From: a virus
Virus record (IMG/VR): IMGVR_UViG_3300036939_000084
Location: 1-33,260 of that record
Reading direction: 5' to 3' (one strand)
DNA length: 33,260 nucleotides
Positions 6,007-21,640 of the stretch are shown piece after piece. The notes beneath the pieces are model-generated. The model was not told where the DNA came from. It did no database searches and worked only from the letters and a program-made list of their open reading frames with translations. The translations under genes were made by a program, and so were the position numbers. Position 1 is the stretch's first letter. The number at the start of each line of letters is the position of its first letter.

Positions 6007-6810
6007 CTATTCGGCTTTTCTGTCTACGATTGGGATGATATTCCGAGCCAGGGATTCTTTTACAGCGTCGAGTGGTTTCAATCCCTGATAGACGACAAGG
6101 CGTGCGCCCAGTTCTTCAACCTGGGAAATCCAGCGCAATTCGTCTGTCGTCAGTGCATCTCTCAGCTTACTCCGGTCTTTAACCTGGAGATCGAGACAAA
6201 GCTTCTTAGCTGTACGACCAAACAAGCCAATATTCAAGGCGTCAGAACAATGTTTATACATCCATTGTTTGGCGTTTTCTGAAAGTTCATCTTTGTGTTT
6301 TTCGATGTACCATTGGACAGCATCGGTCATGTCTAAGCGAACTTGCTTGCCTTCCTGTCGTTTCTTCAACCAGTCTTGGCGATCTTCTTGATCGAATTGA
6401 ATCCCAAAGGCGTCACAGAATGCTTGTTGCAATGACAATCCAGCTAAGTCAATCAATAACTCTGTAGCAGTGCCACTTCCAAGCCTTGAGCAGATCTTGA
6501 GGAACAAGGGAAGTTTTCCAACACTAAGTAAATCGGCTTTTTCGTTAGCCCCTTCAATCGAGACCTTTGGATGTACTAAAAGTCCTTGTGGAGCAAGGGT
6601 TTTAGCCTCTTCCGAAGATGCTGCGCGGATGTACCGTTTTGCTGCTTGACTCCGCTCATATTCTGGATAAGCCAAAAGAACAGCCTGTGTTTTACTAACA
6701 CCGAACTTGTTCGTTGGAGTCCATAAGTTTTCTGGCAACAAATATCCTTCGATCAAAATATTTCCAAGCGGAACTTCAGCACGAATCGCTTTTGTATTAG
6801 AATTGTCCAT
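6007..6810 (-). CDS. Antirepressor-like DNA-binding protein, paralogue 1
   Basis: ATG at 6810 chosen by alignment with paralogue 2. N-terminus resembles P63C-associated antirepressor domains. The last ~115 aa are near-identical to 14734..15531. Confidence 0.7.
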   Translation of the reverse strand: MDNSNTKAIRAEVPLGNILIEGYLLPENLWTPTNKFGVSKTQAVLLAYPEYERSQAAKRYIRAASSEEAKTLAPQGLLVHPKVSIEGANEKADLLSVGKLPLFLKICSRLGSGTATELLIDLAGLSLQQAFCDAFGIQFDQEDRQDWLKKRQEGKQVRLDMTDAVQWYIEKHKDELSENAKQWMYKHCSDALNIGLFGRTAKKLCLDLQVKDRSKLRDALTTDELRWISQVEELGARLVVYQGLKPLDAVKESLARNIIPIVDRKAE

Positions 6811-6896
6811 GTTGTTCGCCACTTGTTCTGGCGGATAGCCCCAGCCATACTTGCGATAGGGGGATGGTGAGACATCTCCTGTTTCGCGCTGGGTTT
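6811..6896 (-). ncRNA. Structured 5' leader RNA, copy 1
   Basis: Stems CCCAGC/GCTGGG, GCGA/TCGC, AGGAGATG/CATCCCCCT and CGCCA/TGGCG; TGTTAAAAT -10 upstream; conserved with copy 2. Confidence 0.65.
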
Positions 6897-7011
6897 TCAC
6901 TTCTTAATTTTAACAATTAAATTAAAAATTACTTGTCTGCAAAAATACAATTTTGAGCTTATTCTTTGCAGTAAATAATGTTTCTTACATTGCTTATATT
7001 AAAGGTTTAAT

Positions 7012-9003
7012 ATGCAAGCAAAAGATCGACCTAGATTAACAACGGCGAATAGAAGAGCGATCGCGAAAGCAACAGATCCAGGAGGAATAAGCGATCGCCG
7101 AAAATTCGCCGCCCAAATGACACGCATCAGAAAAGCCTCTACTGATCGTTGGTACAAGGAGGGTGGTCACTGGTTTCTGTCCTGGGCAAAAGAGAACTAT
7201 AGAACCTGGACAGGTGAACCTCTTCGTTGGGACGATCCCTTCTCAGAAGAGTTTTACCTTGTAATGGGAAATCCTTGGTTTGTCTCCTTATACGTTGAAA
7301 AATCGGCCCAAGTGGGATGGAGCGAAAGTGGAATAGCTTTTACAGCATTTTGCTTAGGCGCACTTCGTGTTCCTACAGCTTATGGCGTTGAACAAGAGCG
7401 CAAGCTAGGGGACATGGTAGGGCCGCGTATTCAACCAGCCCTGGACAATATTGCACCTATCCAAAAACTCAAGGTTGAGTACAAGTCTGCCGTAGGGCGT
7501 AAAGACACTGATACCAAGCAGCGGCAAATCACAGTTGGGGGAGTACTCTTAACCTGCTTCTATGCCAGTACTAGTTCTGGAGGGAAGTCCAAAGAGTCTG
7601 GTGGGCGCGGTCGTCAGGCAGCCTCTGGTCTTTCGTCGTTTACTGCTTGGGTACTGGCATGCTTGGACGAGATTGAGCTATGGCCAGCAGGAGCATTGGA
7701 TGTGGCGCGTCAACGGCAAGAGGCATCCCCTCTCCCCACTAAACCTCTTCGAGCTGGCTCCACACCGGGTCATGAGGGTGGAATTGTCGATAGTTACTCG
7801 CGTTCCGCCAAGCATTTGTTTCAGTGGGAGGTTAAATGTCCCTGCTGCGATTGCCTCCAACACATCGACCCCTTTGGCAATCTCATCCTTTCTGTTCCTG
7901 TAGACGAAGAAGGGAATGAAGTAGCCGAAAGCAGTGAGGAAGAATTCATCGATATCATGGGTCGTCCCCGCAAGTGGTTTTGTCACGATCCATTGCGCCC
8001 GGTAGAGACGGCTTATGTGGGATGTCAGCACTGTGGGAAAGAATTGAGTAAAGAGGCGATCGCAGCAGGTCGATTTACCTGCGTTAACACGGCTATCCCT
8101 TTACGAGAGCTACATGACAAGCTACTAGAACAGCAGTCCCCGCTTTACGATGACGTCGCGTTGCGGTTGCCCAAATTGGCGACAGCTCGGTTCAGTGCTC
8201 CGGAGAGAATGCGCCGCTTGATTACAACCCGAAATCCGGCTGATGAAATTCAACAGGGTCTGGGCAAGGCGGTATCGATTGGTGGGGGTCGTATTAATCT
8301 CACTCGTCTACTTCGATGCATTGGTCGTCCCTATCCTGCGGAGGCGGCTTATTGGGAGGAGTATACGGTTGTTGGCGTAGACCAGGGCATGGTTGGGAAC
8401 TGGGTTGTTGTCTGCAAGTTCTGGGTGCCAGAAGAGGGCGAGGATGATGAAGACCGCTGGTATCGCGCCTTTGTTGAAATAATCTCCTACGAGCAACTGG
8501 GAGGCGGTTTTCCTGCAATCCATCAATTGGCTTTGCGGTACGATGCCGATTTAGTTGGAATCGATAATGAACCGGAAGTGGAAAAAGCTGGGGAATATGC
8601 AAGACAGCATCCGCCTGACTATGACAACGAGGGATATGCAGTATTGATGTTTGACCAGCTCAAGCTGAATGGTCCTAAATATAAGCATTCGGACAAGAAC
8701 GTCCAGGGAGTGGAGACGCCGATTATTGCGTTGCATCGGACGGCTCAGTTGGATGCAGTGCGCGATCGCATTCATCAACTTCAATATCGATTTCCCAAGG
8801 ATTTAGTTTATGACCCAAAGGATGATGAGAATTTCATCCATCACTTGCAAACATCCGAACGGCTGAAGAACGGAACTTGGTCTGAACCCGAGGGTTCGCC
8901 CGATCACTATCATCACGCCCTGGGCTTTGCAGAGATGGCGATGCTTTATTGGCTAGTTGAGGCACCAACACCAATGGTATTTGGCACTATGAAAAGAGAT
9001 TGA
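7012..9003 (+). CDS. terL: Phage terminase large subunit (GpA family)
   Basis: KSAQVGWSE Walker A, LDEIE Walker B, GSTP coupling motif, CPCC/CQHC zinc motif, and nuclease motifs VGVDQG and PDHYHHA. Confidence 0.9.
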   Translation: MQAKDRPRLTTANRRAIAKATDPGGISDRRKFAAQMTRIRKASTDRWYKEGGHWFLSWAKENYRTWTGEPLRWDDPFSEEFYLVMGNPWFVSLYVEKSAQVGWSESGIAFTAFCLGALRVPTAYGVEQERKLGDMVGPRIQPALDNIAPIQKLKVEYKSAVGRKDTDTKQRQITVGGVLLTCFYASTSSGGKSKESGGRGRQAASGLSSFTAWVLACLDEIELWPAGALDVARQRQEASPLPTKPLRAGSTPGHEGGIVDSYSRSAKHLFQWEVKCPCCDCLQHIDPFGNLILSVPVDEEGNEVAESSEEEFIDIMGRPRKWFCHDPLRPVETAYVGCQHCGKELSKEAIAAGRFTCVNTAIPLRELHDKLLEQQSPLYDDVALRLPKLATARFSAPERMRRLITTRNPADEIQQGLGKAVSIGGGRINLTRLLRCIGRPYPAEAAYWEEYTVVGVDQGMVGNWVVVCKFWVPEEGEDDEDRWYRAFVEIISYEQLGGGFPAIHQLALRYDADLVGIDNEPEVEKAGEYARQHPPDYDNEGYAVLMFDQLKLNGPKYKHSDKNVQGVETPIIALHRTAQLDAVRDRIHQLQYRFPKDLVYDPKDDENFIHHLQTSERLKNGTWSEPEGSPDHYHHALGFAEMAMLYWLVEAPTPMVFGTMKRD

Positions 9004-9038
9004 TATGTGGTAAAATAATTAAGTAAACAAATTAAAAA

Positions 9039-9653
9039 GTGACAATGCTAGACAATTTACAAGACCTAGAAATTCAGTTAGCTCAATTACAAGCACGACT
9101 GGATTCTCATCAAGCTGTTTTCAAGGCAGAGCAAGAGCGCTTAGGGAAGGAATTTCCTAAACTGACTCAACTCAAAGATGAGGCTAAACGTCTCAATGAC
9201 GGGTGGATACCTTTTGATAAATATACCAATTTCTCAAGAAAGGAGGACGTTATCAAGTGGATCGCTAAAAAGAATATACCTTCTCCTGAAGAAACTATCG
9301 AAAAGTGGCGCGAAACCAAAAATCGCATCATTGCAACGAAGGTGGGCATGACATACGTTCAATGGAGCATATTGAACAATCTCACCTATGCAGAGTATGA
9401 AGACAGGATGTTTTGGAAAAAAAATCACAATTCGGTTTATACCGATGGTGGTCTGCATTTCTTTTACGCCGTTTTAGCAGCAGAAGAAAATTCGTTAATG
9501 GTCTACTTGGAAGGCAGAACACCTGCCGCCAAGGAGTCTGTTGTTTATCTAGCAGTACCGCCAGATGGTAATACCTACTTAGTCACAGATATTCGTTGTG
9601 AAGAGAAATACGATATTTCATCGATTCGACACGGTGAATTGAAGAGGCTCTAG
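9039..9653 (+). CDS. Hypothetical protein with N-terminal coiled coil
   Basis: Own promoter motif at 9006, terminator 9661-9686, box A downstream. Confidence 0.75.
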   Translation: MTMLDNLQDLEIQLAQLQARLDSHQAVFKAEQERLGKEFPKLTQLKDEAKRLNDGWIPFDKYTNFSRKEDVIKWIAKKNIPSPEETIEKWRETKNRIIATKVGMTYVQWSILNNLTYAEYEDRMFWKKNHNSVYTDGGLHFFYAVLAAEENSLMVYLEGRTPAAKESVVYLAVPPDGNTYLVTDIRCEEKYDISSIRHGELKRL

Positions 9654-9660
9654 TGAAGAG

Positions 9661-9686
9661 TCCGCCCCAAAAGGGGCGGATTTTTT
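9661..9686 (+). terminator. Intrinsic terminator
   Basis: TCCGCCCC-AAAA-GGGGCGGA followed by TTTTTT. Confidence 0.85.
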
Positions 9687-9757
9687 ATTAAAGGTTTAAT
9701 ATACTTTTTTGCTATAAAGTGATAAAATAATTAAGTAAACAAGATTAAAACATTATC

Positions 9758-10558
9758 ATGACTAAAATGATCGAAAGCTTCGCAACAATGCTACTAGCTG
9801 ACGCATTTTGGAGTACATGGGAGGATGACGAGTCCGTCATTGACCTAATTACTCAAGAGGAGCGGGAAAAGTTCTGCCGCAGTTATGCTGGTTCAGGTTG
9901 CGAAATTGTTCAAGGTATGGAATGCGCTCTTGAGGATCTAGAAATAGACATCAAACCATTCCTCCCTTTAGAAGTGGTTCAACAGATTGTAGACAATGTT
10001 AATGAATTTTGGAAAAATAAATACTCAGTGGAAGAACTCCATGAGTATTGCCAGCGAGCATCTCATCGATTAATATTGGGTCGAATCGGTCATGGCGTAG
10101 ACGCTGATGACGATACCCATATCGCCGAGATGTTTGAAGAATTGGGGATATCAACTCCCCCCAGTTCCCACGAAGGAGCTTATGAGCAAGGCGAAAACCT
10201 TGCGAGCAAGGTTGAGGAAACCCTAGCCGTAAAATACGGACACCAGTGGGTTAAATATTCAACGAGTAAGTATGACATTTTAATCCTGGCTCAAAAAGCA
10301 GGTGATGGTAATTCTTACTTCTCTATTAAGGCGATGAACCGTAGCACTTTTAAATCTGACTGGGTAACAAACATGCATAGCATTGTTACCGTAACAGGTT
10401 CATCTGAATGGGAAAAAGAATTTGCAGATTGGGAGATGCCTTTTGAAGAGGCGATCGCAAAGATGCAAATCCTTGAGGACAAAATGAAAGACTCCGCTTT
10501 TATGGAATGGTTTCACAAAGACTTAGAGTCTGACGAAGAAGAGTTTGAGTGGAACTAG
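9758..10558 (+). CDS. Acidic hypothetical phage protein
   Basis: 266 aa, D/E-rich, own promoter and terminator. Confidence 0.8.
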   Translation: MTKMIESFATMLLADAFWSTWEDDESVIDLITQEEREKFCRSYAGSGCEIVQGMECALEDLEIDIKPFLPLEVVQQIVDNVNEFWKNKYSVEELHEYCQRASHRLILGRIGHGVDADDDTHIAEMFEELGISTPPSSHEGAYEQGENLASKVEETLAVKYGHQWVKYSTSKYDILILAQKAGDGNSYFSIKAMNRSTFKSDWVTNMHSIVTVTGSSEWEKEFADWEMPFEEAIAKMQILEDKMKDSAFMEWFHKDLESDEEEFEWN

Positions 10559-10560
10559 CA

Positions 10561-10586
10561 AAAAAGCCCGGATTTACCGGGCTTTT
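10561..10586. terminator. Bidirectional terminator
   Basis: AAAAGCCCGG-ATTTA-CCGGGCTTTT. Confidence 0.85.
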
Positions 10587-10653
10587 GTTTTGTTGTGTGA
10601 TAAACTTAAGTAGTAAACATCCCGTCTTACTTGCACACATTTTTTTTTGAAAA

Positions 10654-11313
10654 ATGACAGTACAACGGCATTGTATTCCTGCTTATGCGGTTTGCAGAAC
10701 AAATAAACATTGGTTATGGGCTGTTTGGACACAAAAACAATTCCGTGTTTCTCATTTTGAGAAATTAATACCAACTCATATAGGTAAGGCAAATTCCAAG
10801 GCAGAAGCGATCGCGGAAATTGGTAAAATTTTAGATTTAGATTTGCTGTCGTGCAAAATACGTATGGTTTCTTACTCTATGAAAACGGGAGAGGGAATTC
10901 CAATTTATCAGTTCGTCCCCTACTGGAAGGCTGATGTAGTTCAACTTTGGTCAACTTCGGCTCTTGTTGGAGCTAGAAAGAAATTGTACAGGACTCGTGA
11001 AGTGAATATTGCAAACAACTGGGAAACAAAGGTCATAGGTTTAGCACCTAGCTTTCTACCACTGAAGGAAGGGGGTGAGTATATAGGAGAAGTTGATCGA
11101 AGAAACGGTGAAGCTTGTGAACCAACCAAGGCGAACATAAAAGTTCACTCAAGATATATCAATCAAGGTGGTTGGATACTCTATAACATCGTTCTAGATG
11201 GCAAAGAGAAAGTCACGATGAGTGAAGACTGTTCTATGCTGGGTGGACTTTACCGCTTTGTTATCTACAATCAATTCTGGAATTTTCACAAACGAAGTGA
11301 AACTTTAGTTTAG
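10654..11313 (+). CDS. Hypothetical protein
   Basis: 219-aa ORF with the promoter motif at ~10595. Confidence 0.7.
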   Translation: MTVQRHCIPAYAVCRTNKHWLWAVWTQKQFRVSHFEKLIPTHIGKANSKAEAIAEIGKILDLDLLSCKIRMVSYSMKTGEGIPIYQFVPYWKADVVQLWSTSALVGARKKLYRTREVNIANNWETKVIGLAPSFLPLKEGGEYIGEVDRRNGEACEPTKANIKVHSRYINQGGWILYNIVLDGKEKVTMSEDCSMLGGLYRFVIYNQFWNFHKRSETLV

Positions 11314-11317
11314 ATCT

Positions 11318-11572
11318 TCAATGCGCTAAAGGTTTAATAACAAAAAGATATCGCTGTATTAATACAAGCGATATCTTTTTGTGTCTAAGTTTCTTCTGGA
11401 TCTGACTCAAAGCGTTCGATAACGTAACGTGTTCAGCTATTGCAACCTGGAGATCTTCCAGGTCGTATTCTCCTTCTTTGTACATGGTAGCAAAATCCAT
11501 CATTTTGCTAAGAAAGTAGAAGTCTGAATCGATATACCAAACAATGATTTGTGTGAATTTGTTTAATTTCAT
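11318..11572 (-). CDS. Hypothetical protein (cassette gene)
   Basis: Promoter motif upstream. The 3' end runs through the hairpin at 11342-11379 and a partial box A. Confidence 0.6.
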   Translation of the reverse strand: MKLNKFTQIIVWYIDSDFYFLSKMMDFATMYKEGEYDLEDLQVAIAEHVTLSNALSQIQKKLRHKKISLVLIQRYLFVIKPLAH

Positions 11573-11707
11573 CTCTTCTGTTTTTGTTATTACTTTACAT
11601 GTGTTTACTATTGTATTTTATCACATTCTTTGAGTATATAGCCTAGATTGGTACAATCTGAACGAAATGTTGCTATTTGAGCTATTTATATTAAAGGTTT
11701 ATTATCG

Positions 11708-13987
11708 ATGGTCAACTCTGCCAATCCTCTCGTTAATTCTGTCAATACCGTCTTCAATACTTCCAACCCGCTCGACGTTCAACCCAACGATTTGGGCGTG
11801 AAATTCATGGCACCTGCGAGCCAGACAGATCCTCGCGTTCCCGTGGCTGAAGAATTTGCCCTTTCATCGGAAATCTTCATCGAGTTGTGGCGCTCATCTC
11901 GCAGGCAGGGGTGGAATACTCTTCCTAAATTTGAAACCAATATCCGCAAATTAAAAATCCTCGGACGCGCCCAGCTAAAGATTTATAGGGATACCTTAAG
12001 TCTGGATACATCAATTACGGTACCTGCATTAGAAAACACAGGCTCAACTATTAAGCGGGACGACTACCTGAGCCTGGTTTCGTTTTGTGCAGAGGTGGGC
12101 GCTATTCAAGATGCAACGCTGGGGCAAATTACTTTTCGCTACCGCCACCCTTTAAACCAAACGATTGAGACTATTCAGAAGGAAAACTCGCGCCGATATC
12201 GTTCTTTTTGGATGTTAGTACTTACATCAAATATTCCAACTGTGGACACATTGCTCAGTGGGATGACGACGGAGGCGAATGGGGATAGGAGACTCGCGAT
12301 CGCCAACACATTAGAAACCGGATTCCCCCTCACCCCAGGAGTCCAGGTTTACGCCAGAGACGCTCGCTTAACCAGTGGTGTCGCCTACACGGTTGTTCCC
12401 GAATCCATTGAGTTTCTCCCCTTGTGTCTGATTCGCAGATTGCAAAACTATCAAGAAGATGGCTTCACCTATGGGTATGGCGGGGAAGAGCCGCTAGAGG
12501 TGGGAGTATCTGTAATTAGTCTTGCTAAGCCGCTAGAATCGGGCGAGATTATGAATCGTGTGCGGGGGCGGATACAGGATATCTGTGCAGGTGTGCCGGG
12601 TCAAGGCAGTAGCTATAAGCGTACAATCCTTAACCTGGTGGCCGGTCAGGTGGCAGGGAATCCAGGTAAAGCAGGGCAGTCGGCAAGTTCTCCCAACGGT
12701 TCAGTTTGCCTTGCGAACGACCAAAGAGTGACGTTTACCAACCAGGCTGTTTCTCAGCGGTGGTCTGTGGTTCGGGTAACGGCAGGAAATGGAGGAGCGG
12801 GTTCTGGTGGTAAGCTTAGGGGTTTGCTCGCTGTTGGTCTCAATACGAATGCTCCGTCTGGTTCAGTGTTCAGCGAAGTCAGAGAAGACCATAAAATCTA
12901 TACGGCTGATGGAGTAGAACAGTCTTCACTGGGGACGTTTTCCAACCTAGGTGGCAGCGGTTCGTTGCAATGGCTAGCTGGGGAGAACTCTTCAATTCTT
13001 CCCGGCATGGTTGCGTATTTCGTGCCATCGGTTCGGTATCCTGCGGGCAGCGGCTTTAATTTGCCTTTTGCAAAATGCGAAAAAGTGTGGAAGGATGGGG
13101 CGGCGATCGCGCCTGAAAACATTCGCCAGGGATACGAAGGAGATATTGACGGGTATCAAGACCCAGCTGGTAACGAAGCTTTTCTGGTAATCGTTGGGTC
13201 GGAACGGGCGGCACTGCACTATATCTATAAGAAAGTGATTATTACAACCGATGGTAGTGGGGCTGCGGTTATTCCTCCCAACGAGTCGGGCTGCTTTGCT
13301 TTTATCCAGGGGCGAACAGGAAGAATTAATTCTCCTGTTTGCACAGGGCTTAAACAGAATACGGCTTATCAAGCGCTGATTTATTACCCTCCCCGCTCCA
13401 CTGAGTCTTGGCAATTCCAATTCACCTATTGTGAATATCAGGGGATGGGATTGAATAATCCTGACTGGGTTGATGGTGCGACAGTCGTTTCACCCGCTTT
13501 ATTCTTCATCCACACCCAGGGTGGGGGATTAAGCGTTCATCAGGGACAGGCGGCAACTCGGTACTCTCCGATCTCATTTCACCTCCCTTCGGTTACGAAC
13601 CCTCCGTCGCCCAGCTATAACTTTGATGCCCCGACTCAACTTGCGGGCGAACCTTATCTGGGGCCGGACACCAATCGGGAGTTGCCTTTAATGTCGGGGT
13701 TTGGTTTGGCTATTCCGACACCTGGGCAGAATCTTAGTCTTCAGAAGAATAGTGGAGTGCAGGCGCGATCGCTCAATGCCACTCTTCTCACCAACAATCA
13801 ACCTGTGGGTTTTCGCACTCCAACCCTGCAAAGCAAAGCCCCCTTCCAAGCGGTGATGTACTTCGCTGCTCAGAAAGGGGAGGATGTGAGGTTAATTATT
13901 GTGACTTACAACTCGCCTGGAACCGATGGCGTAAATGTGGTTGCAAATTCTCAGGCGGGGGCGGCTATCGACTTGTTCCGGTTGTAA
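11708..13987 (+). CDS. Large Gly/Ser-rich protein, probable virion (baseplate/tail) structural protein
   Basis: 759-aa ORF with beta-rich composition and box A 3 bp before the ATG. Function inferred from context only. Confidence 0.6.
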   Translation: MVNSANPLVNSVNTVFNTSNPLDVQPNDLGVKFMAPASQTDPRVPVAEEFALSSEIFIELWRSSRRQGWNTLPKFETNIRKLKILGRAQLKIYRDTLSLDTSITVPALENTGSTIKRDDYLSLVSFCAEVGAIQDATLGQITFRYRHPLNQTIETIQKENSRRYRSFWMLVLTSNIPTVDTLLSGMTTEANGDRRLAIANTLETGFPLTPGVQVYARDARLTSGVAYTVVPESIEFLPLCLIRRLQNYQEDGFTYGYGGEEPLEVGVSVISLAKPLESGEIMNRVRGRIQDICAGVPGQGSSYKRTILNLVAGQVAGNPGKAGQSASSPNGSVCLANDQRVTFTNQAVSQRWSVVRVTAGNGGAGSGGKLRGLLAVGLNTNAPSGSVFSEVREDHKIYTADGVEQSSLGTFSNLGGSGSLQWLAGENSSILPGMVAYFVPSVRYPAGSGFNLPFAKCEKVWKDGAAIAPENIRQGYEGDIDGYQDPAGNEAFLVIVGSERAALHYIYKKVIITTDGSGAAVIPPNESGCFAFIQGRTGRINSPVCTGLKQNTAYQALIYYPPRSTESWQFQFTYCEYQGMGLNNPDWVDGATVVSPALFFIHTQGGGLSVHQGQAATRYSPISFHLPSVTNPPSPSYNFDAPTQLAGEPYLGPDTNRELPLMSGFGLAIPTPGQNLSLQKNSGVQARSLNATLLTNNQPVGFRTPTLQSKAPFQAVMYFAAQKGEDVRLIIVTYNSPGTDGVNVVANSQAGAAIDLFRL

Positions 13988-14226
13988 TGACTAGGTACTT
14001 CGTCATCTTTCCCGTCGATTCGCCGGAGGAATTGCTTACGATTTCGGAAAAATTTGATCGCTCGTTCGTCAAGTTATTGAAGGATGAGCGGTTGTACTTC
14101 CTGGATAGCAAGATTAGTGAGCGGCAGCTGAGGGAACTGTTTGAGGCTTATCCGGAGAAGAAGGTGCGATCGCTCATTTTCTCTCGAATTACAGGAATAT
14201 CTATAGAAAAAAACAACTCGTCTTAG
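13987..14226 (+). CDS. Hypothetical protein
   Basis: TAATG translational coupling to the upstream gene. Confidence 0.7.
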   Translation: MTRYFVIFPVDSPEELLTISEKFDRSFVKLLKDERLYFLDSKISERQLRELFEAYPEKKVRSLIFSRITGISIEKNNSS

Positions 14227-14242
14227 TAGCGAGTTGTTTTTT
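14208..14242. terminator. Bidirectional terminator between convergent genes
   Basis: AAAAAACAACTCG...CGAGTTGTTTTTT. Confidence 0.8.
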
Positions 14243-14249
14243 GAGATTT

Positions 14250-14621
14250 CTAGTTAAGTTTACTTGTTCTCCTTATTTCTTCTACAAAGTAACATAGATT
14301 TTCTGGAGAGTAGGTTAGCCATTCACGATCTTTTCCTCTGATGTAATCGTTTTCTTTTTGACCCCATTGCACCTGTACCATTCTTTTTTCACCTTTCATC
14401 TCTCTTGAGTCATCCTTGAAGGCTACTCCAACCCAAGGGAAGTCTGTATGAATGACGACAATGCCTGGTTTTCCTATTCCTCTGCAACAAAGCTCATCCG
14501 GATTTATCAGTTTTGTTAGGTACCATAAACCATATGGACCTTGACAAATTCTCGCTCCTGCATCTTGTATGTTAGATCGGGCGTGTGATGCTTCTTCAAA
14601 TGAATCGAATGTTTTGAACAT
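14250..14621 (-). CDS. Hypothetical protein (cassette gene)
   Basis: Promoter motif at ~14649 and terminator downstream. Confidence 0.7.
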   Translation of the reverse strand: MFKTFDSFEEASHARSNIQDAGARICQGPYGLWYLTKLINPDELCCRGIGKPGIVVIHTDFPWVGVAFKDDSREMKGEKRMVQVQWGQKENDYIRGKDREWLTYSPENLCYFVEEIRRTSKLN

Positions 14622-14733
14622 ACCGCTTTTTTGAATATCTATCTTATTATTTTATCACAGAATCCTTGCGGTTTGCAAAAAAAGCCCACCAGAAGGTGAG
14701 CGATTGTAATTTGGTTTTGCAATTTGCAAAAGA

Positions 14734-15531
14734 CTATTCGGCTTTTCTGTCTACGACCGGGATGATATTCCGAGCCAGGGATTCTTTTACAGCGTCCAGT
14801 GGTTTCAATCCCTGATAAACAACAAGGCGAGCACCTAGTTCTTCAACCTGGGAAATCCATCGGAGTTCGTCTGCGGTGAGCGCGTCTCTCAACTTACTCC
14901 GATCCTTGACATTGAGATCGATGCAAAGCTTTTTGGCGGTACGACCAAACAAGCCAAGGTTTAAAGCATCTGAACAGTGTTTGTACATCCACTGCTTCGC
15001 GTTTTCCGAAAGTTTGTCTTTGTGCTTTTCGATATACCACTGGACGGCATCGGTCATGTCTAAGCGAACTTTCTTCCCTTCTTCCCTTGCCTGGAATCGC
15101 TCATTCCGTTCTTGTTCCGTTCGGAAAATCCCGAAGGCTTTGTCTGCTCGACGCTCAATGGACTCGGTGTTAGATGCGATCAACATACTCAGGGCTTTTT
15201 GATTGCCCTGAAGTGCGAAATGTCCCCAAATATGTCCAGCGTCTTCTATTGAGACGGTTTGAGCTTTTCTTGCTTTTGCCTCATTTTGAATAGAAACAGA
15301 CAAACGCGAACCTCTAAAACCCCTTTCTAGTAAGGAATTCAGGATGTTTTTCTTCTTTGACGCTAACTCCGAAAACCAGTTGGGTTTTTCGTTTATTCGC
15401 TCCAGCACCTGGGACTGGCTGAGCCTGTACTCGCCATATTCCGCTTGATACTTATCTTCAATGCGGAAAACTTCCAATTGCTCTGAGCCATGTTGGATTA
15501 CAACACGCTCAGCTTTTGCGATAATATCCAT
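14734..15531 (-). CDS. Antirepressor-like DNA-binding protein, paralogue 2
   Basis: Same leader and C-terminal domain as 6007..6810, with a divergent N-terminal domain (LEVFRIED...EYRLSQSQV). Confidence 0.7.
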   Translation of the reverse strand: MDIIAKAERVVIQHGSEQLEVFRIEDKYQAEYGEYRLSQSQVLERINEKPNWFSELASKKKNILNSLLERGFRGSRLSVSIQNEAKARKAQTVSIEDAGHIWGHFALQGNQKALSMLIASNTESIERRADKAFGIFRTEQERNERFQAREEGKKVRLDMTDAVQWYIEKHKDKLSENAKQWMYKHCSDALNLGLFGRTAKKLCIDLNVKDRSKLRDALTADELRWISQVEELGARLVVYQGLKPLDAVKESLARNIIPVVDRKAE

Positions 15532-15618
15532 GTTGTTCGCCACCTTGTATGGCGGATAGCCCCAGCCGTACTGCGATAGGGGGATGGTGGAAACATCTCC
15601 TGTTTCGCGCTGGGATTT
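15532..15618 (-). ncRNA. Structured 5' leader RNA, copy 2
   Basis: Same stems as copy 1 with differences mostly in loops; TGTTAGAAT -10 upstream. Confidence 0.65.
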
Positions 15619-15763
15619 TACTCCCTAATTCTAACAATTTATTTTCTTTTTAATTGTATTTAATGAGACATTTATTGATTTGTAATTTTGTGCTTAGCAT
15701 GGCTTTTATTAAACATTTAATAAAAATGTAATAAAATATAGTTGTAAACAATTTTTAGAGCAC

Positions 15764-17068: not shown

Positions 17069-20000
17069 ATGGCAGTAATTCGTAGATTTGGTAGCAAACC
17101 GGGTGGTCCTGGTATTGTCGTCAATGAGCGGTCAGGAATTAACCAAATTCCTGATCCTACCTATGGTTCAACTTTTATGTTGGGCGTCCTCAAGCGTGGG
17201 CCAATGGGCGTAATTGTCCCAGTTCGCAGCAAGCGGCAGTACAATTTAATCTTTGGCGATCCATCCGACGACACCTGGCCTCTTTTTACGGATAGTTCGC
17301 ACCTTTGCCCTGATGCGATTGATGGATTTTTCTCCACGGGAGGTGGGGCTGGGGTTCTGATGCTTTGTCGTCCGGAGTTAGACAAAACCGCTCGTCCAGC
17401 CGAGAAAATATTCAAGGGGCGGAATGGAGCGGAAGTCTTACGTGTAAAGGCGAGTAATGAAGGACGTTGGGGAGGAGCCGCAAATAAAATCGCAGCCACT
17501 CCAATTGTTTACGCTACATCTCGAACATTCACCCTTGTTACTCCTGGGGTAGAGCGCAATGAGTTTAGAGATGCAGATGCTAAATTCTCCAATTTAGATA
17601 ATCGCGTCTACAAAATCGTCTCTAATAGCAAAGCTGATCCCATTTCAGGAGAGACGATCTATACTGTTGGGGCGCAATACGACTTGGTTCGCGAACGTGT
17701 GTCGGGACCTGTGGCAATGACGGGAACCGCAACCTACTCTCCGTTCACTGCACTAACTGGCACAATTGCTTACCCTCTCTATAATGCCGTCACGGGAACA
17801 GCCAGTATCAACGAGCGAGTGATTACAGGTGTTGGCACGTCTTTCTCAACCGAGCTTCAAGTTGGAAATAATATTTATTACAACGGCGAAGCAAGGGCGA
17901 TTGAGAGTATCACTAGTAACACCACTCTTACTGTTGCTGAAGCATTCTCTATTCCCACAGCCAATAACGTCAGCCTACAGCGAGACAACCTGGTAGTAAC
18001 AGGCACCAACAGCCAATTCACGACTGAGCTGGCTGTTGGTGATGAAATCTTTGTTGAGGTTAACGGCATAAGACAGGGACGAGTCGTGGGCGCGATCGCC
18101 TCTCCGACTGAACTCACTTTAAATTCTGGTTTCTCTGACGAAGTAGGCGCAGGAACTCAAGCCACTCGGCGCAACTTTACTTTAAGGGGTACAGGTACCG
18201 CCTTCTTGGCGGAAATCAAACCGGGAGAATTCATTGTAGATCCCAACCGAGCAGGGAAAACCGTTAAGGTTGTAAGGGTTGTTTCCAACACAGAAATAAG
18301 GCTTGAAAAGCCATTCCAGATCAATTTTGCAGATGCACAATTGACTCGACAGCCGTATTTAGCGACTATTGAATATACGCCAGCTAAGTACGAAGGATTG
18401 GCGATTGAGATTAGTCAAGGACTCAAAAAGCCCGAAACACATTTTACGCTTACCGTTTTCTTCAACGGCTCACAAGTTCTTCAGGTACCCGACTGCTCTC
18501 TGGATCGGAATGATCCAGATTTTGTCGATACCAAGGTAAGCAACGCCAATATTGCTCACGCCACCGGGACTCGAAACTACGCCCAGTGGATCGAAGCCGA
18601 GTCTTTGTGGTCGTCAACCTATACCACATCTGAGCAAAACGATGTACGTCCTTGCAACGGGTCGGGCCAGATCGTCCACTTGACCAGCAACACGATGTTC
18701 ACCGTTGCTGACTTAGATTGGGGCAACCTAGTTGGTCAAAGGGTTTATCCCAACCCCTACGAGTACTATCGCGACTTTTATACTATTCAGCAAGCTTCTG
18801 CTCCTATTTCCTTGGAAGGGACAGTTTCTTCTGCTGGGGTAAACGTTACAGGAACAGCGACTCGGTTTGCGTCCCAAGTTAAGGCTGGACAATACTTTTA
18901 CGATCCAGCGACTGGAACGGCAAGAAAAATTCGTTCTGTACTTAGCGATACCCGCCTTGTTTTGGATACGCCCTTCCCCATAAATATGGCGGCTGGCACT
19001 AAAGGAACAATAGCTGGATATATTGCTGTAGGTGAACGGTACGACCTACGGATGGCGACAGAAGTAGGCACTAATCTGCTTGTTGTGCAGCCGCAATACC
19101 TAGAACGTGGCTACGACGGCGATACGGGAACACTAGCCCCCCATTACTTCACCCAATACCTCGATATTGATTACAATTTCATCGAGAAGTACACGCTGAA
19201 TCGCAATCTAGGTTTAGTCAAAATCGCTGTCCCTGGTATTTCTGACGAGACGATTCAGAAGACTGGAATTTATTACGCTCAGCAGCAGGCGTACCAGTAC
19301 CGGGCAGAAATTCCTAGCTACATTACCAACCCGTCTGTGGCGGAGGCATATGTCCTCAACAATTTGGGTCGTAGCGACTTTGAAGCTGTAGCATTTCCAA
19401 GCTACGGTACCATTGCATCGCCTTTTAGTGGGAGCGATCGCCTAATCTCTCTAACTGGTGAAATCCTAGGAGGAGAAGCAAGACAAGCTATCACATATTC
19501 CGGATACCATTATCCATTCGCTGGTTTGAGATCTGTAATGCCGCGAGTACTGCGGCTCCCGGTCGGATTGGATATGGACGACGAAGCTGTTTTAAATATG
19601 GCGGGTATTCAACCTATAAAGATTTTGGACGGTAATGCCATTGTCTTTGGTGCTCGCATTCCTGCCGAGAGTGGTGTATACGACTTCAAACACATCCGCG
19701 AGATTCAGTCGAATTATATTCGAGTATTCTTGGAAGCTCGCAACCTTTTAGAGATGCTGTTTCAGCCCAATCAGCCAGGAGTCCTCAACGAAGCAATTTT
19801 GTTACTCAATGAATTCGCTCGTGGAGAATTCCGTAAAGGCACCATCACTCAGTACCTGAGCTTTCAGCAAGCGGTTAGCGTAACCAGTGATATTCAGTCA
19901 AATACGGCGATCGCGGGAAGTGATGCCAAGTCTTCGTTGATTGCCATCATTAACGGCAAACTGAACATCAAATTTACCTACACCCCAACTGGGATTGTTG

Positions 20001-20074
20001 AGGTGTTGAATGTGACGGTTGGTCCAGACTTACTTGCTGAATCGTTTGGTCAATCTTTGGCTAGCGCGGCTTGA
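17069..20074 (+). CDS. Contractile tail sheath protein with inserted repeat domains
   Basis: N-terminal PGIVVNE...G...RGP....V.S......FG and C-terminal LNMAGIQPI...VFGAR...HIR...FQPN sheath motifs. Confidence 0.9.
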   Translation: MAVIRRFGSKPGGPGIVVNERSGINQIPDPTYGSTFMLGVLKRGPMGVIVPVRSKRQYNLIFGDPSDDTWPLFTDSSHLCPDAIDGFFSTGGGAGVLMLCRPELDKTARPAEKIFKGRNGAEVLRVKASNEGRWGGAANKIAATPIVYATSRTFTLVTPGVERNEFRDADAKFSNLDNRVYKIVSNSKADPISGETIYTVGAQYDLVRERVSGPVAMTGTATYSPFTALTGTIAYPLYNAVTGTASINERVITGVGTSFSTELQVGNNIYYNGEARAIESITSNTTLTVAEAFSIPTANNVSLQRDNLVVTGTNSQFTTELAVGDEIFVEVNGIRQGRVVGAIASPTELTLNSGFSDEVGAGTQATRRNFTLRGTGTAFLAEIKPGEFIVDPNRAGKTVKVVRVVSNTEIRLEKPFQINFADAQLTRQPYLATIEYTPAKYEGLAIEISQGLKKPETHFTLTVFFNGSQVLQVPDCSLDRNDPDFVDTKVSNANIAHATGTRNYAQWIEAESLWSSTYTTSEQNDVRPCNGSGQIVHLTSNTMFTVADLDWGNLVGQRVYPNPYEYYRDFYTIQQASAPISLEGTVSSAGVNVTGTATRFASQVKAGQYFYDPATGTARKIRSVLSDTRLVLDTPFPINMAAGTKGTIAGYIAVGERYDLRMATEVGTNLLVVQPQYLERGYDGDTGTLAPHYFTQYLDIDYNFIEKYTLNRNLGLVKIAVPGISDETIQKTGIYYAQQQAYQYRAEIPSYITNPSVAEAYVLNNLGRSDFEAVAFPSYGTIASPFSGSDRLISLTGEILGGEARQAITYSGYHYPFAGLRSVMPRVLRLPVGLDMDDEAVLNMAGIQPIKILDGNAIVFGARIPAESGVYDFKHIREIQSNYIRVFLEARNLLEMLFQPNQPGVLNEAILLLNEFARGEFRKGTITQYLSFQQAVSVTSDIQSNTAIAGSDAKSSLIAIINGKLNIKFTYTPTGIVEVLNVTVGPDLLAESFGQSLASAA

Positions 20075-20138: not shown

Positions 20139-21640
20139 ATGCCCATCCAACTCAACAAAGCAGTATTAGAACAAAACATCTTTACCAAGGCAAACCAGAC
20201 CCTAACCATCACGGGTCTAGGCAGGATGCTCATCTTGAGTCGAGATGCCATTACCTTAGAACAACCAACCATTGAATTGGCAGAGTGCGACTCGTTCGCA
20301 GCCTAATACATAAGCTGCGGTGAGAATGACAAGGTAGAACCTTGAAAATTCCATAACTGTTCCTTGGATGGAGGTGCAAATCCTCCCCTTCAAGGTTAGA
20401 AGTGACTCCCTATCTGTCCACGCCGAGGTTAATCACCAGAGCGAAGCTGGAAGCAGGGCGCAATCAGAGCTGAAACAGATTAAGCACACTGGCGCTAATG
20501 GGGAGATACTATGGTGAACTTAATGTGAAGCACCTGAAAAAACGCCTTAACACAGAGCAAGAATCTGTTCATATCTTGACTCAACCATCTGTAAACTCGC
20601 AGTAGAGCTGCCAATAACTGTATAACCATGAGTTGGTGGTAGGCGAAGTGGTGACACCTAAGGTATCAAAACAATCTAAGGAACGGAACGAGGAAAAACG
20701 TCACCGACTTTGTGGGGTTGACAACCTACATGGGAGGTCGTGATTAAACTTCTATCGGAAGGTGACGGGTAGGATGGGGGAATGAAACTACCCCCGGCAA
20801 CCGAGAAGTCTAGGAATGGATTAGACTATGCGTAGACAGCCTGCTATACCTAATACCAAGAAGGATAACAGTATGACTGACGCGGACGGGCAACCTGCCA
20901 AGGTTCGATGAATGGCTAAGAAAGGACTAGATGGAACACAGGCAAGAAAATACAGGGAAACACATGTCATGCAAGTAAGTTGGAAGAGTTGACCTCGAAA
21001 GACTTAAGACGGTGACAAGGTGGAAGTCAATTCCTGAAAACAGCTTGTGAATGGGATTTATGGGTATGTTGCCCAGTTACCCGGTGGTTGCTAGGAGCCG
21101 GATGCGGTGAAAATCGCACGTCCGGTTTTGAAGGAGAGGTGCATCACAGCAATGTGGACATCGACTCTAACCAAAACAAATGTCCCAGGTGGTCGTAACA
21201 ACCCAGGCGAATTTAACTGTGTCGTGCAATTAGCTCACGATGACATGCGGCGCAAAATGATTTCTTGGTACCATCAATGCTTAAACTATGGCAACGGCGT
21301 TAACCCGAACTACAAAAAGCCTGCGCTGTTAACTTTCAACAGGCATTTCCAGGGTGCGCCTGATGCTCAGTTTGGGAACGGCTCCTCCGCTCGCAACCCC
21401 TTGAACGTCACGATTCTGGGCACATGGCCTAAGTCGTGCGAGATTCCGGAATACTCAATGAGTGATGGAGATGACGGTGACGCTGATTGTCAGCTGACAC
21501 TGAACCTGTCCTACGATGATCTGGAGTTTGAGAGCGGAGAGGTTGATGCCCTAGGTGCTCTTAGTGGCTATCAGTCTTCCCGTAGTGTCACTCAGAATGT
21601 CGCGGGTAACGTGACTGGATTCTTGGGCGTTGGTGGCTAG
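20139..21640 (+). CDS. Tail tube protein, spliced (exon 1 20139-20284, exon 2 21172-21640; 204 aa)
   Basis: Follows the sheath gene. Joined exons total 615 nt in frame (..IELAD|KTNVPGGR..). Tube-like motifs SWY..C, ILGTWP and LSYD. Confidence 0.85.
20285..21171 (+). mobile_element. ORF-less group II intron (IIB-like), 887 nt
   Basis: 5' GTGCGA; domain V GAGCCGGATGCGGTGAAAATCGCACGTCCGGTT; domain VI ending CTCTAAC; EBS1-like CTGCCAAT (20608-20615) complementary to the exon end; no RT ORF. Confidence 0.93.

Follow-up and report, generated by a model that had tools for sequence, protein, structure and literature searches.

Two nearly identical hairpin elements of about 85 bases, each preceding a gene for a DNA-binding protein, occur in a cyanobacterial prophage represented by IMG/VR record IMGVR_UViG_3300036939_000084, which is classed as a provirus and of which we analysed positions 1 to 33,260 (the window). 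Judging from layout, fold and conservation, each copy is probably the gene for a cis-encoded antisense RNA of about 85-88 nt that blocks translation of its target in the manner of P22 Sar. Transcription on the + strand would start at a promoter predicted within the first codons of the facing gene and stop at the second hairpin and a short U tail of the RNA, which would pair with the whole 5' leader of the target as far as the last base ahead of the AUG, so that translation would be blocked. If both promoters fire, such pairing may serve to limit the amount of a potentially harmful DNA-binding protein in the lysogen or in early infection.

Both target genes lie on the - strand. Gene 1 (6007-6810; 267 aa from the ATG at 6810) encodes a protein with a KilA-N/Bro-N-like N terminus and a DdrC-related core and C terminus, and gene 2 (14734-15531; 265 aa from the ATG at 15531) is its paralogue with a different N-terminal half. 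In each case the element begins at the base adjoining the ATG, and a -10-like hexamer on the + strand occupies codons 3-5, 6-7 nt away. For gene 1 this predicted antisense -10 is TAGAAT (6798-6803, 7 nt before 6811); with a weak -35 and no TG, the promoter was not called by a consensus scan. For gene 2 a predicted antisense promoter spans 15497-15525 on the + strand (ATTACA, 17 nt, TG.GATAAT; the -10 ends 6 nt before 15532) and has 9 of 12 matches plus the TG, although 1.5 such sites per region are expected by chance. The predicted RNA of copy 1 (6811-6897, +) comprises hairpin 1 (6811-6839, 11 bp), hairpin 2 (6840-6893, 18 bp across three helices) and a U4 tail (6894-6897), and that of copy 2 (15532-15619, +) comprises hairpin 1 (15532-15560), hairpin 2 (15561-15614) and the tail AUUUU (15615-15619). 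Hairpin 2 is G+C-rich and the tail short (weaker still in the Nodularia phages described below), and a scan for terminators left the predicted stem uncalled. Facing each antisense promoter is a TG-extended -10 on the - strand, which we read from the sequence as the predicted mRNA promoter of gene 1 (TG.TAAAAT, 6907-6915) and of gene 2 (TG.TAGAAT, 15627-15635); the form TG.TARAAT recurs at the equivalent place in copy 2 and in a further copy of the element, from another phage (L003), whose protein is 63% identical to that of gene 1 and in which the element structure is kept.

This arrangement closely follows P22 Sar (RF00262; immI arc-sar-ant, BK000583), which likewise lies antisense to a phage gene of the DNA-binding class, with its 5' end adjoining the target ATG. 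Its promoter, too, sits in the first codons with a -10 ending 6 nt off, and it forms a pair of neighbouring hairpins that contain G-U pairs and are followed by a short U tail. In BK000583, sar reaches to the base directly preceding the ant ATG, the annotation of Psar runs from codon 3 on and the far hairpin is the terminator. There are also differences: Sar is 68-70 nt long and unrelated in sequence to the prophage element of about 85 nt, which has interior loops in hairpin 2 and two copies per genome. The prophage loci are without arc, mnt or any other small gene between promoter and target, their mRNA promoter abuts the element, copy 1 lacks a clear Shine-Dalgarno sequence (SD) and the target proteins are unrelated to P22 Ant. 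RF00262 had no match in the record at E up to 10, while the P22 positive control scored 97.8 bits. More broadly, nothing in Rfam 15 reached its gathering score within the element, where there were only five chance matches at E 2-6, and the preliminary suggestion of a possibly undescribed structured RNA is borne out to the extent that the element is conserved and has no Rfam 15 match. A parallel had also been drawn with the C4 and CI RNAs. The CI RNA of P4 is a structured phage RNA that represses antirepressor-type or early genes through mRNA pairing, and C4 RNA is cut from the same transcript as its targets, upstream of them, whereas the prophage element is encoded opposite the leader and complements it exactly. 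According to passages of PMC12197685, the C4 RNA of P1/P7 is a structured phage RNA that represses antirepressor-type or early genes by pairing with mRNA at short target sites. A C4/CI-like design was not upheld, given the match of the layout to P22 sar and the absence of any match to the C4-type models of Rfam.

The two facing -10 boxes, about 110 bp apart, the G+C-rich hairpin 2 with its U tail and the + strand terminase gene just downstream of copy 1 would also suit transcriptional interference between convergent promoters, or an insulator halting transcription along the + strand; the RNA would then be a by-product, and repression would not come from RNA-RNA pairing. We consider this unlikely: interference has no need of hairpin 1, which starts at the predicted +1 and is conserved with pair-preserving changes, and the identical layout in P22 works by pairing, according to passages of PMC12197685.

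The choice of strand argues further for an antisense RNA. On the + strand, antisense to both genes, the element folds into two adjacent hairpins at -42.4 kcal/mol with five G-U pairs per copy (z of -5.0 and -4.6; none of 200 shuffles as good), compared with -28.2 and -29.0 kcal/mol on the mRNA strand (z of -2.4 and -2.7; 5 and 2 of 200 shuffles as good). P22 sar behaves alike in the identical test (antisense -29.5, z -5.5; sense -21.0, z -2.4). Across six sequences there are 19 G-U pairs on the antisense strand versus 2 A-C, and natural variants at 6878 and 6887 turn G-C into G-U on the + strand, at the cost of the pair in the mRNA. The repeat seen in the preliminary description is real, with the correction that it is the + strand, opposite the mRNA, which folds better. 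In the mRNA sense, the final hairpin does stop 6 nt ahead of the ATG, as had been observed. The reported lack of a clear SD is true of copy 1 (anti-SD pairing of -2.5 kcal/mol in the last 20 nt) and less so of copy 2, which reaches -7.2 via an interrupted duplex; L003, like copy 1 and in contrast to P22 ant, is without a Shine-Dalgarno sequence for the RNA to cover. With DNA parameters the strand gap falls to 1.2-1.6 kcal/mol (for example, -15.8 versus -14.6), and we do not favour a DNA hairpin or a single-strand promoter as the explanation.

The original reading was of a structured 5' leader that exerts cis control on translation, for instance by offering the encoded protein a place to bind. 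The element sits between the TG-extended -10 and the ATG and would therefore be part of the mRNA, the sense fold is somewhat better than shuffles and the lack of a clear SD in copy 1 would fit. We nevertheless judge a cis-acting leader quite improbable. The layout is that of P22 sar, and the stems depend on G-U pairs available only to the antisense strand, five per copy being replaced by A-C mismatches in the mRNA. In addition, the two natural variants break mRNA-strand pairs, the -10 in the first codons is left unexplained, and P22 sar shows an equal residual sense fold. A translated N-terminal extension was rejected because homologues read one leader in different frames (P0003 versus P0006 and P0008).

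The spans first reported as near-identical (6811-6896 and 15532-15618) agree in 79 of 88 aligned columns, and their core (6811-6893 and 15532-15614) in 76 of 84 (90%). All eight differing columns of the core fall among its 26 unpaired ones (hypergeometric p 3.6e-5), in line with the earlier impression that changes lie mostly in loops. The divergence noted in the adjoining coding sequence was equally evident (158 of 324 columns, or 49%, over the first 300 nt of both genes). Past 6918 and 15639 the loci are again only 49% identical (40 of 82 columns), and identity is 85% across the final 360 nt of the coding sequences. The element is present only twice in the 107-kb record; as for short target sites of the C4 kind repeated elsewhere, blastn and nhmmer gave no further match in the genome that rose above chance.

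Pairing is preserved beyond this prophage. A model built from three copies (R1), fixed before the Nodularia matches were seen, matched the antisense strand in Nodularia phages 2AV2 and kac68v161 (rough E of 3e-4 and 3e-5), with the matches starting at the base before the ATG of a KilA-N gene and TG.AATAAT 6 nt off. Covariation gave a divided answer: it was not significant in the three close copies alone (48 of 500 shuffles as high), whereas in a six-sequence alignment fitted to the structure 96.9% of cells were paired and 17 of 29 pairs had two-sided changes (0 of 500 shuffles as high). In biocrust contigs, the element was read by hand ahead of at least three other N termini, with TAnnnT kept at 6-7 nt. 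In a further alternative, the similarity would stem from a recent duplication or from gene conversion, in which the leader (90%) and the 3' part of the coding sequence (85%) act as homology arms for N-terminal swaps around an unalignable middle (49%), or the element would be a DNA-level site, in either case with no RNA function. This is very improbable: domain swapping may well occur, given that one C-terminal domain occurs with several N termini, but it leaves unexplained the confinement of differences to loops, the structure kept in L003 and the Nodularia phages, and a strand bias that is largely lost with DNA parameters.

Within the genome, the three paralogues rank 1, 2 and 4 among 127 ORFs for antisense leader energy, and they make up three of the five ORFs with an antisense -10 score of at least 5. 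All three layout criteria, chosen after the copies had been seen, hold for 4 of the 127. The third paralogue has the same layout and an unrelated leader sequence. Residues 3-5 are compatible with a -10 hexamer in 21 of 21 close homologues versus 30 of 127 ORFs of the genome, and the first residues of the target proteins are probably constrained by the opposite-strand promoter. This codon signature occurred in 59 of 121 distant representatives (19-59 of 146 at shifted offsets). Among more distant homologues, most of them chromosomal, none of the 23 starts that were scored had the layout (14 more were skipped, and several starts are uncertain), nor did two further viral homologues.

Searches elsewhere were largely negative. 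R1 had no match in 150 genomes of the cyanobacterial phylum, and single-protein locus scans and alignment scans of GTDB genomes found nothing. DNA-pattern searches returned 0 loci in one case, and in the others 1 of 1 (the L003 phage), 0 of 17, 1 of 54 (L003 again), 1 of 3 and 0 of 11 were real loci; four Acidobacteriota repeats found by pattern matched only in hairpin 1 and were dropped. By blastn, the element had no match in plasmids, and in annotated phages its A+T-rich flank alone was matched, over 21-23 nt. A literature search that mostly did not extend to subscription journals found no paper on the element.

If the antisense reading is correct, Sar-type control would extend from enterobacterial phages to cyanophages, through an RNA family that Rfam 15 lacks. 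The presence of the element in isolated Nodularia phages opens it to testing. A bolder possibility, which we hold only tentatively, is that the element is a portable two-promoter cassette carried by cyanophages all the way from desert crust to the Baltic. Its RNAs would act in trans, both on paralogues and on incoming related phages, the variable loops setting who silences whom as an RNA-based immunity code, and the silenced products would be DdrC-like phage proteins that bind or compact broken DNA, not antirepressors.

The target proteins had been called antirepressor-like, a label that fits their domain class and does not extend to homology with P22 Ant. A structure model of the copy-2 protein (evidence for gene 1 being at family level) has an N-terminal KilA-N/Bro-N-like DNA-binding fold (pLDDT 94.9) whose best viral match is a KilA-N protein (E 3.8e-8), followed by weaker Bro-N, Mbp1 and Dachshund matches; no Pfam sequence match was found for this N terminus. 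P22_AR_N and P22_AR_C, both present in P22 Ant, matched none of 110 family members, and profile comparison with Ant gave a probability of 0.8%. The closest solved relative is Deinococcus radiodurans DdrC (PDB 7QVB, 7UDI and 8U0G), which accounts for the six best-ranked Foldseek hits in PDB (E 1.4e-4 at best) and a profile match across the core and C-terminal domain (E 8e-7). Both proteins have a Dachshund-like N-terminal domain, although identity is about 15%, whole-chain TM is only about 0.3 (monomer model) and the target proteins are phage-borne. A passage of PMC11347143 describes DdrC as without an identifiable sequence homologue outside Deinococcus; the link is a separate lead and, if true, would place DdrC relatives outside that genus. 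Further candidate leads for the proteins are BstA_C (ESM score 0.92) and, for the C-terminal part, PADLOC PDC-S22 (E 7e-8).

The record (107,263 bases, classed as a provirus and 63% complete), of which the window covers bases 1–33,260, was found in four sequencing runs, all from biocrust metagenomes; two of these runs may be its source. Its genes at 6007–6810 and 14734–15531 (both −; genes 1 and 2) are paralogues whose C-terminal halves are nearly identical and whose N-terminal halves diverge, and a terminase gene lies at 7012. The 83 bases preceding each ATG are identical in 76 of 84 columns, while the flanks diverge, with 49% identity both in the first 300 coding bases and in the DNA further upstream, bearing out the preliminary description of a duplicated leader of ~85 nt followed by diverging coding sequence. 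There is no third copy of this element in the whole record, and it matches no known Rfam family.

Each copy probably yields a Sar-type antisense RNA that starts in the first codons of its gene, ends after the second of two hairpins (6840–6893 in copy 1) and restrains translation. In this mechanism, RNA polymerase would initiate inside those codons on the antisense (+) strand and copy the leader backwards, and the transcript, ending after hairpin 2, would pair with the mRNA leader up to the AUG, keeping translation low while the mRNA promoter is weakly active. Codons 3–5 of gene 1 hold a −10-like hexamer, TAGAAT (6798–6803, +), and those of gene 2 a −10-like TG.GATAAT (15517–15525, +) with a −35 at 17 nt; the copy-2 call is weak on its own because 1.5 such sites per region are expected by chance. 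Beyond the other end of the element, a predicted TG-extended −10 for the mRNA occurs in both copies and in L003, a 103-kb viral contig. Interference between these two facing promoters would draw on the same arrangement and is unlikely.

Criteria chosen once the copies were already known were applied to the 127 ORFs of the record. Genes 1 and 2 and a third paralogue (at 44344) ranked 1, 2 and 4 by antisense leader energy and made up three of the five ORFs scoring ≥5 for an antisense −10; leader z was below −3 in 19 ORFs, the strand gap exceeded 8 kcal/mol in 11, and four combined all three properties. The leader of the third paralogue is unrelated to the element in sequence and alike in layout. 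A protein-level proxy for the antisense −10 (residues 3–5 compatible with the hexamer; 27 of 173 proteins skipped for unclear starts) held in all 21 close homologues, in 59 of 121 distant representatives and in 30 of the 127 ORFs, and at shifted offsets in 19–59 of 146. The proxy is strong for the close homologues only, and those are related to one another.

As RNA, the + strand of either copy folds at −42.4 kcal/mol (z −5.0 and −4.6); an 11-bp hairpin begins at the base adjoining the start codon, and an interrupted hairpin of 18 bp comes directly after it, then a short run of U. A cis-acting leader of the mRNA, slightly less likely again than promoter interference, would have to fold on the mRNA strand, at −28.2 and −29.0 kcal/mol (z −2.4 and −2.7); five G–U pairs per copy on the + strand are A–C mismatches there, and with DNA folding parameters the strand difference nearly disappears. 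Changes between the copies had been described as lying mostly in loops with the stems kept, and all eight differences do fall in unpaired columns (p = 3.6e-5). A neutral or recombinational repeat is a very improbable reading. Variants from related biocrust contigs, placed by hand on the + strand structure, turn G–U into A–U at 6814, 6859 and 6862, G–U into G–C at 6836 and 6877, and G–C into G–U at 6878 and 6887. Against pair preservation, a variant at 6838 disrupts a pair in one contig, those at 6863 and 6866 disrupt pairs in a single contig with a depth of 2.4, and that at 6861 could not be phased with its pairing partner.

In L003 the element differs by changes that preserve pairing, with TG.TAGTAT at 7 nt. 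Depth increases over the element in four biocrust assemblies because other contigs have only the element in common, and loose ends there, read by hand, give at least three further N-termini, each with TAnnnT 6–7 nt from the element. Read-through N-termini of the homologous proteins P0003, P0008 and P0030 seem to be translated related leaders, in differing frames. A model of the element, R1, was fixed on three close copies (copies 1 and 2 and L003) before Nodularia phages were examined, isolates to which a fold match of the target proteins pointed. Its best matches in vB_NpeS-2AV2 and kac68v161 (rough E-values, 3e-4 and 3e-5) lie on the antisense strand and start at the base immediately preceding the KilA-N gene's ATG; both phages have the basal stem of hairpin 2 as in the element and TG.AATAAT at 6 nt, and the antisense versus sense strands of a 90-nt segment fold at −32.4 versus −26.9 and −31.8 versus −24.9, respectively, a smaller gap than in copies 1 and 2. 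A weaker match, at locus L001, lacks a clear −10 and stops 32 nt short of a neighbouring gene's ATG. The six sequences, aligned to R1, had 96.9% of cells paired and two-sided changes in 17 of 29 pairs (0 of 500 shuffles as high), in an alignment fitted to the structure and comprising about three independent lineages; the pair-change test on the three close copies alone was not significant. The element was not seen when 23 starts from more distantly related homologues were scored (14 others were skipped), nor at two other viral homologues or in 150 genomes of the phylum.

In P22 record BK000583, sar (15021–15090, −), ant (from 15091), Psar (15097–15125) and the terminator (15021–15058) are laid out as are the element and its genes, and sar shows the same kind of strand bias in that fold test. 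Unlike sar, the element falls outside RF00262 (Rfam model search, with a control run), its unit lacks arc or mnt, and its target proteins are not Ant homologues; by this comparison, it likely works like Sar but is not a member of the Sar family. The literature surveyed, mostly abstract openings, mentions no such RNA in cyanophages.

The target proteins' family has no Pfam match among 110 members; 920 representatives score at E up to 0.001. PHROG 2657 ('transcriptional regulator') matches their C-terminal part, and the N-terminal part is shared with plasmid proteins annotated as P63C-domain. The predicted structure is confident (pLDDT 94.9, pTM 0.69), its top viral fold match being a KilA-N protein from a Nodularia phage. 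Profile (E = 8e-7) and fold (E = 1.4e-4, TM about 0.3) relate both proteins, through family alignment A6, to DdrC as the closest solved relative. Excerpts of PMC11347143 and PMC9303277 describe DdrC as a dimer that binds DNA breaks and compacts DNA, reported without homologues outside Deinococcus; the word 'phage' is absent from both.

Several further features were observed. In the third paralogue (44344–45099 of the record, +), codon 108 is followed by an in-frame stop; its leader, distinct from the element, also folds as two hairpins on the antisense strand and has TAAAAT at 6 nt. A Bro-like gene (65065, +) and a small gene whose product has a hydrophobic N-terminus (45545–45952, −) likewise have antisense two-hairpin leaders, unrelated to the element in sequence, and a −10-like hexamer within their first codons. 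Two paralogous genes at 39273 (+) and 80747 (−) have a common antisense hairpin and U run just upstream of their starts, within the preceding gene. L001:2876–2991 may belong to the RNA family as a remote member; it precedes a different gene and has a third hairpin ahead of the start codon. Four loci of one Acidobacteriota MAG (L006, L012, L014 and L021) carry a palindromic element that matches hairpin 1 only. A 26,824-nt contig of run X2 (depth 25 versus 21.8 for the phage) has the element at both ends and is possibly a circular companion element or a missing part of the phage genome with a further copy. It also carries a 23-nt A+T-rich near-palindrome found in ten copies at gene boundaries of the window (1525–31872; for example, 6994–7016 and 15704–15726), which together with a TG-extended promoter-like motif before many genes makes up repeat families D2–D5. 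An ORF-less group II intron of ~890 nt (20285–21171, +; GTGCG at 20285, Rfam D5–D6 at 21093–21171) appears to interrupt the gene next after a 1001-aa ORF (17069–20074), with open frames on either side (20139–20284 and after 21171).
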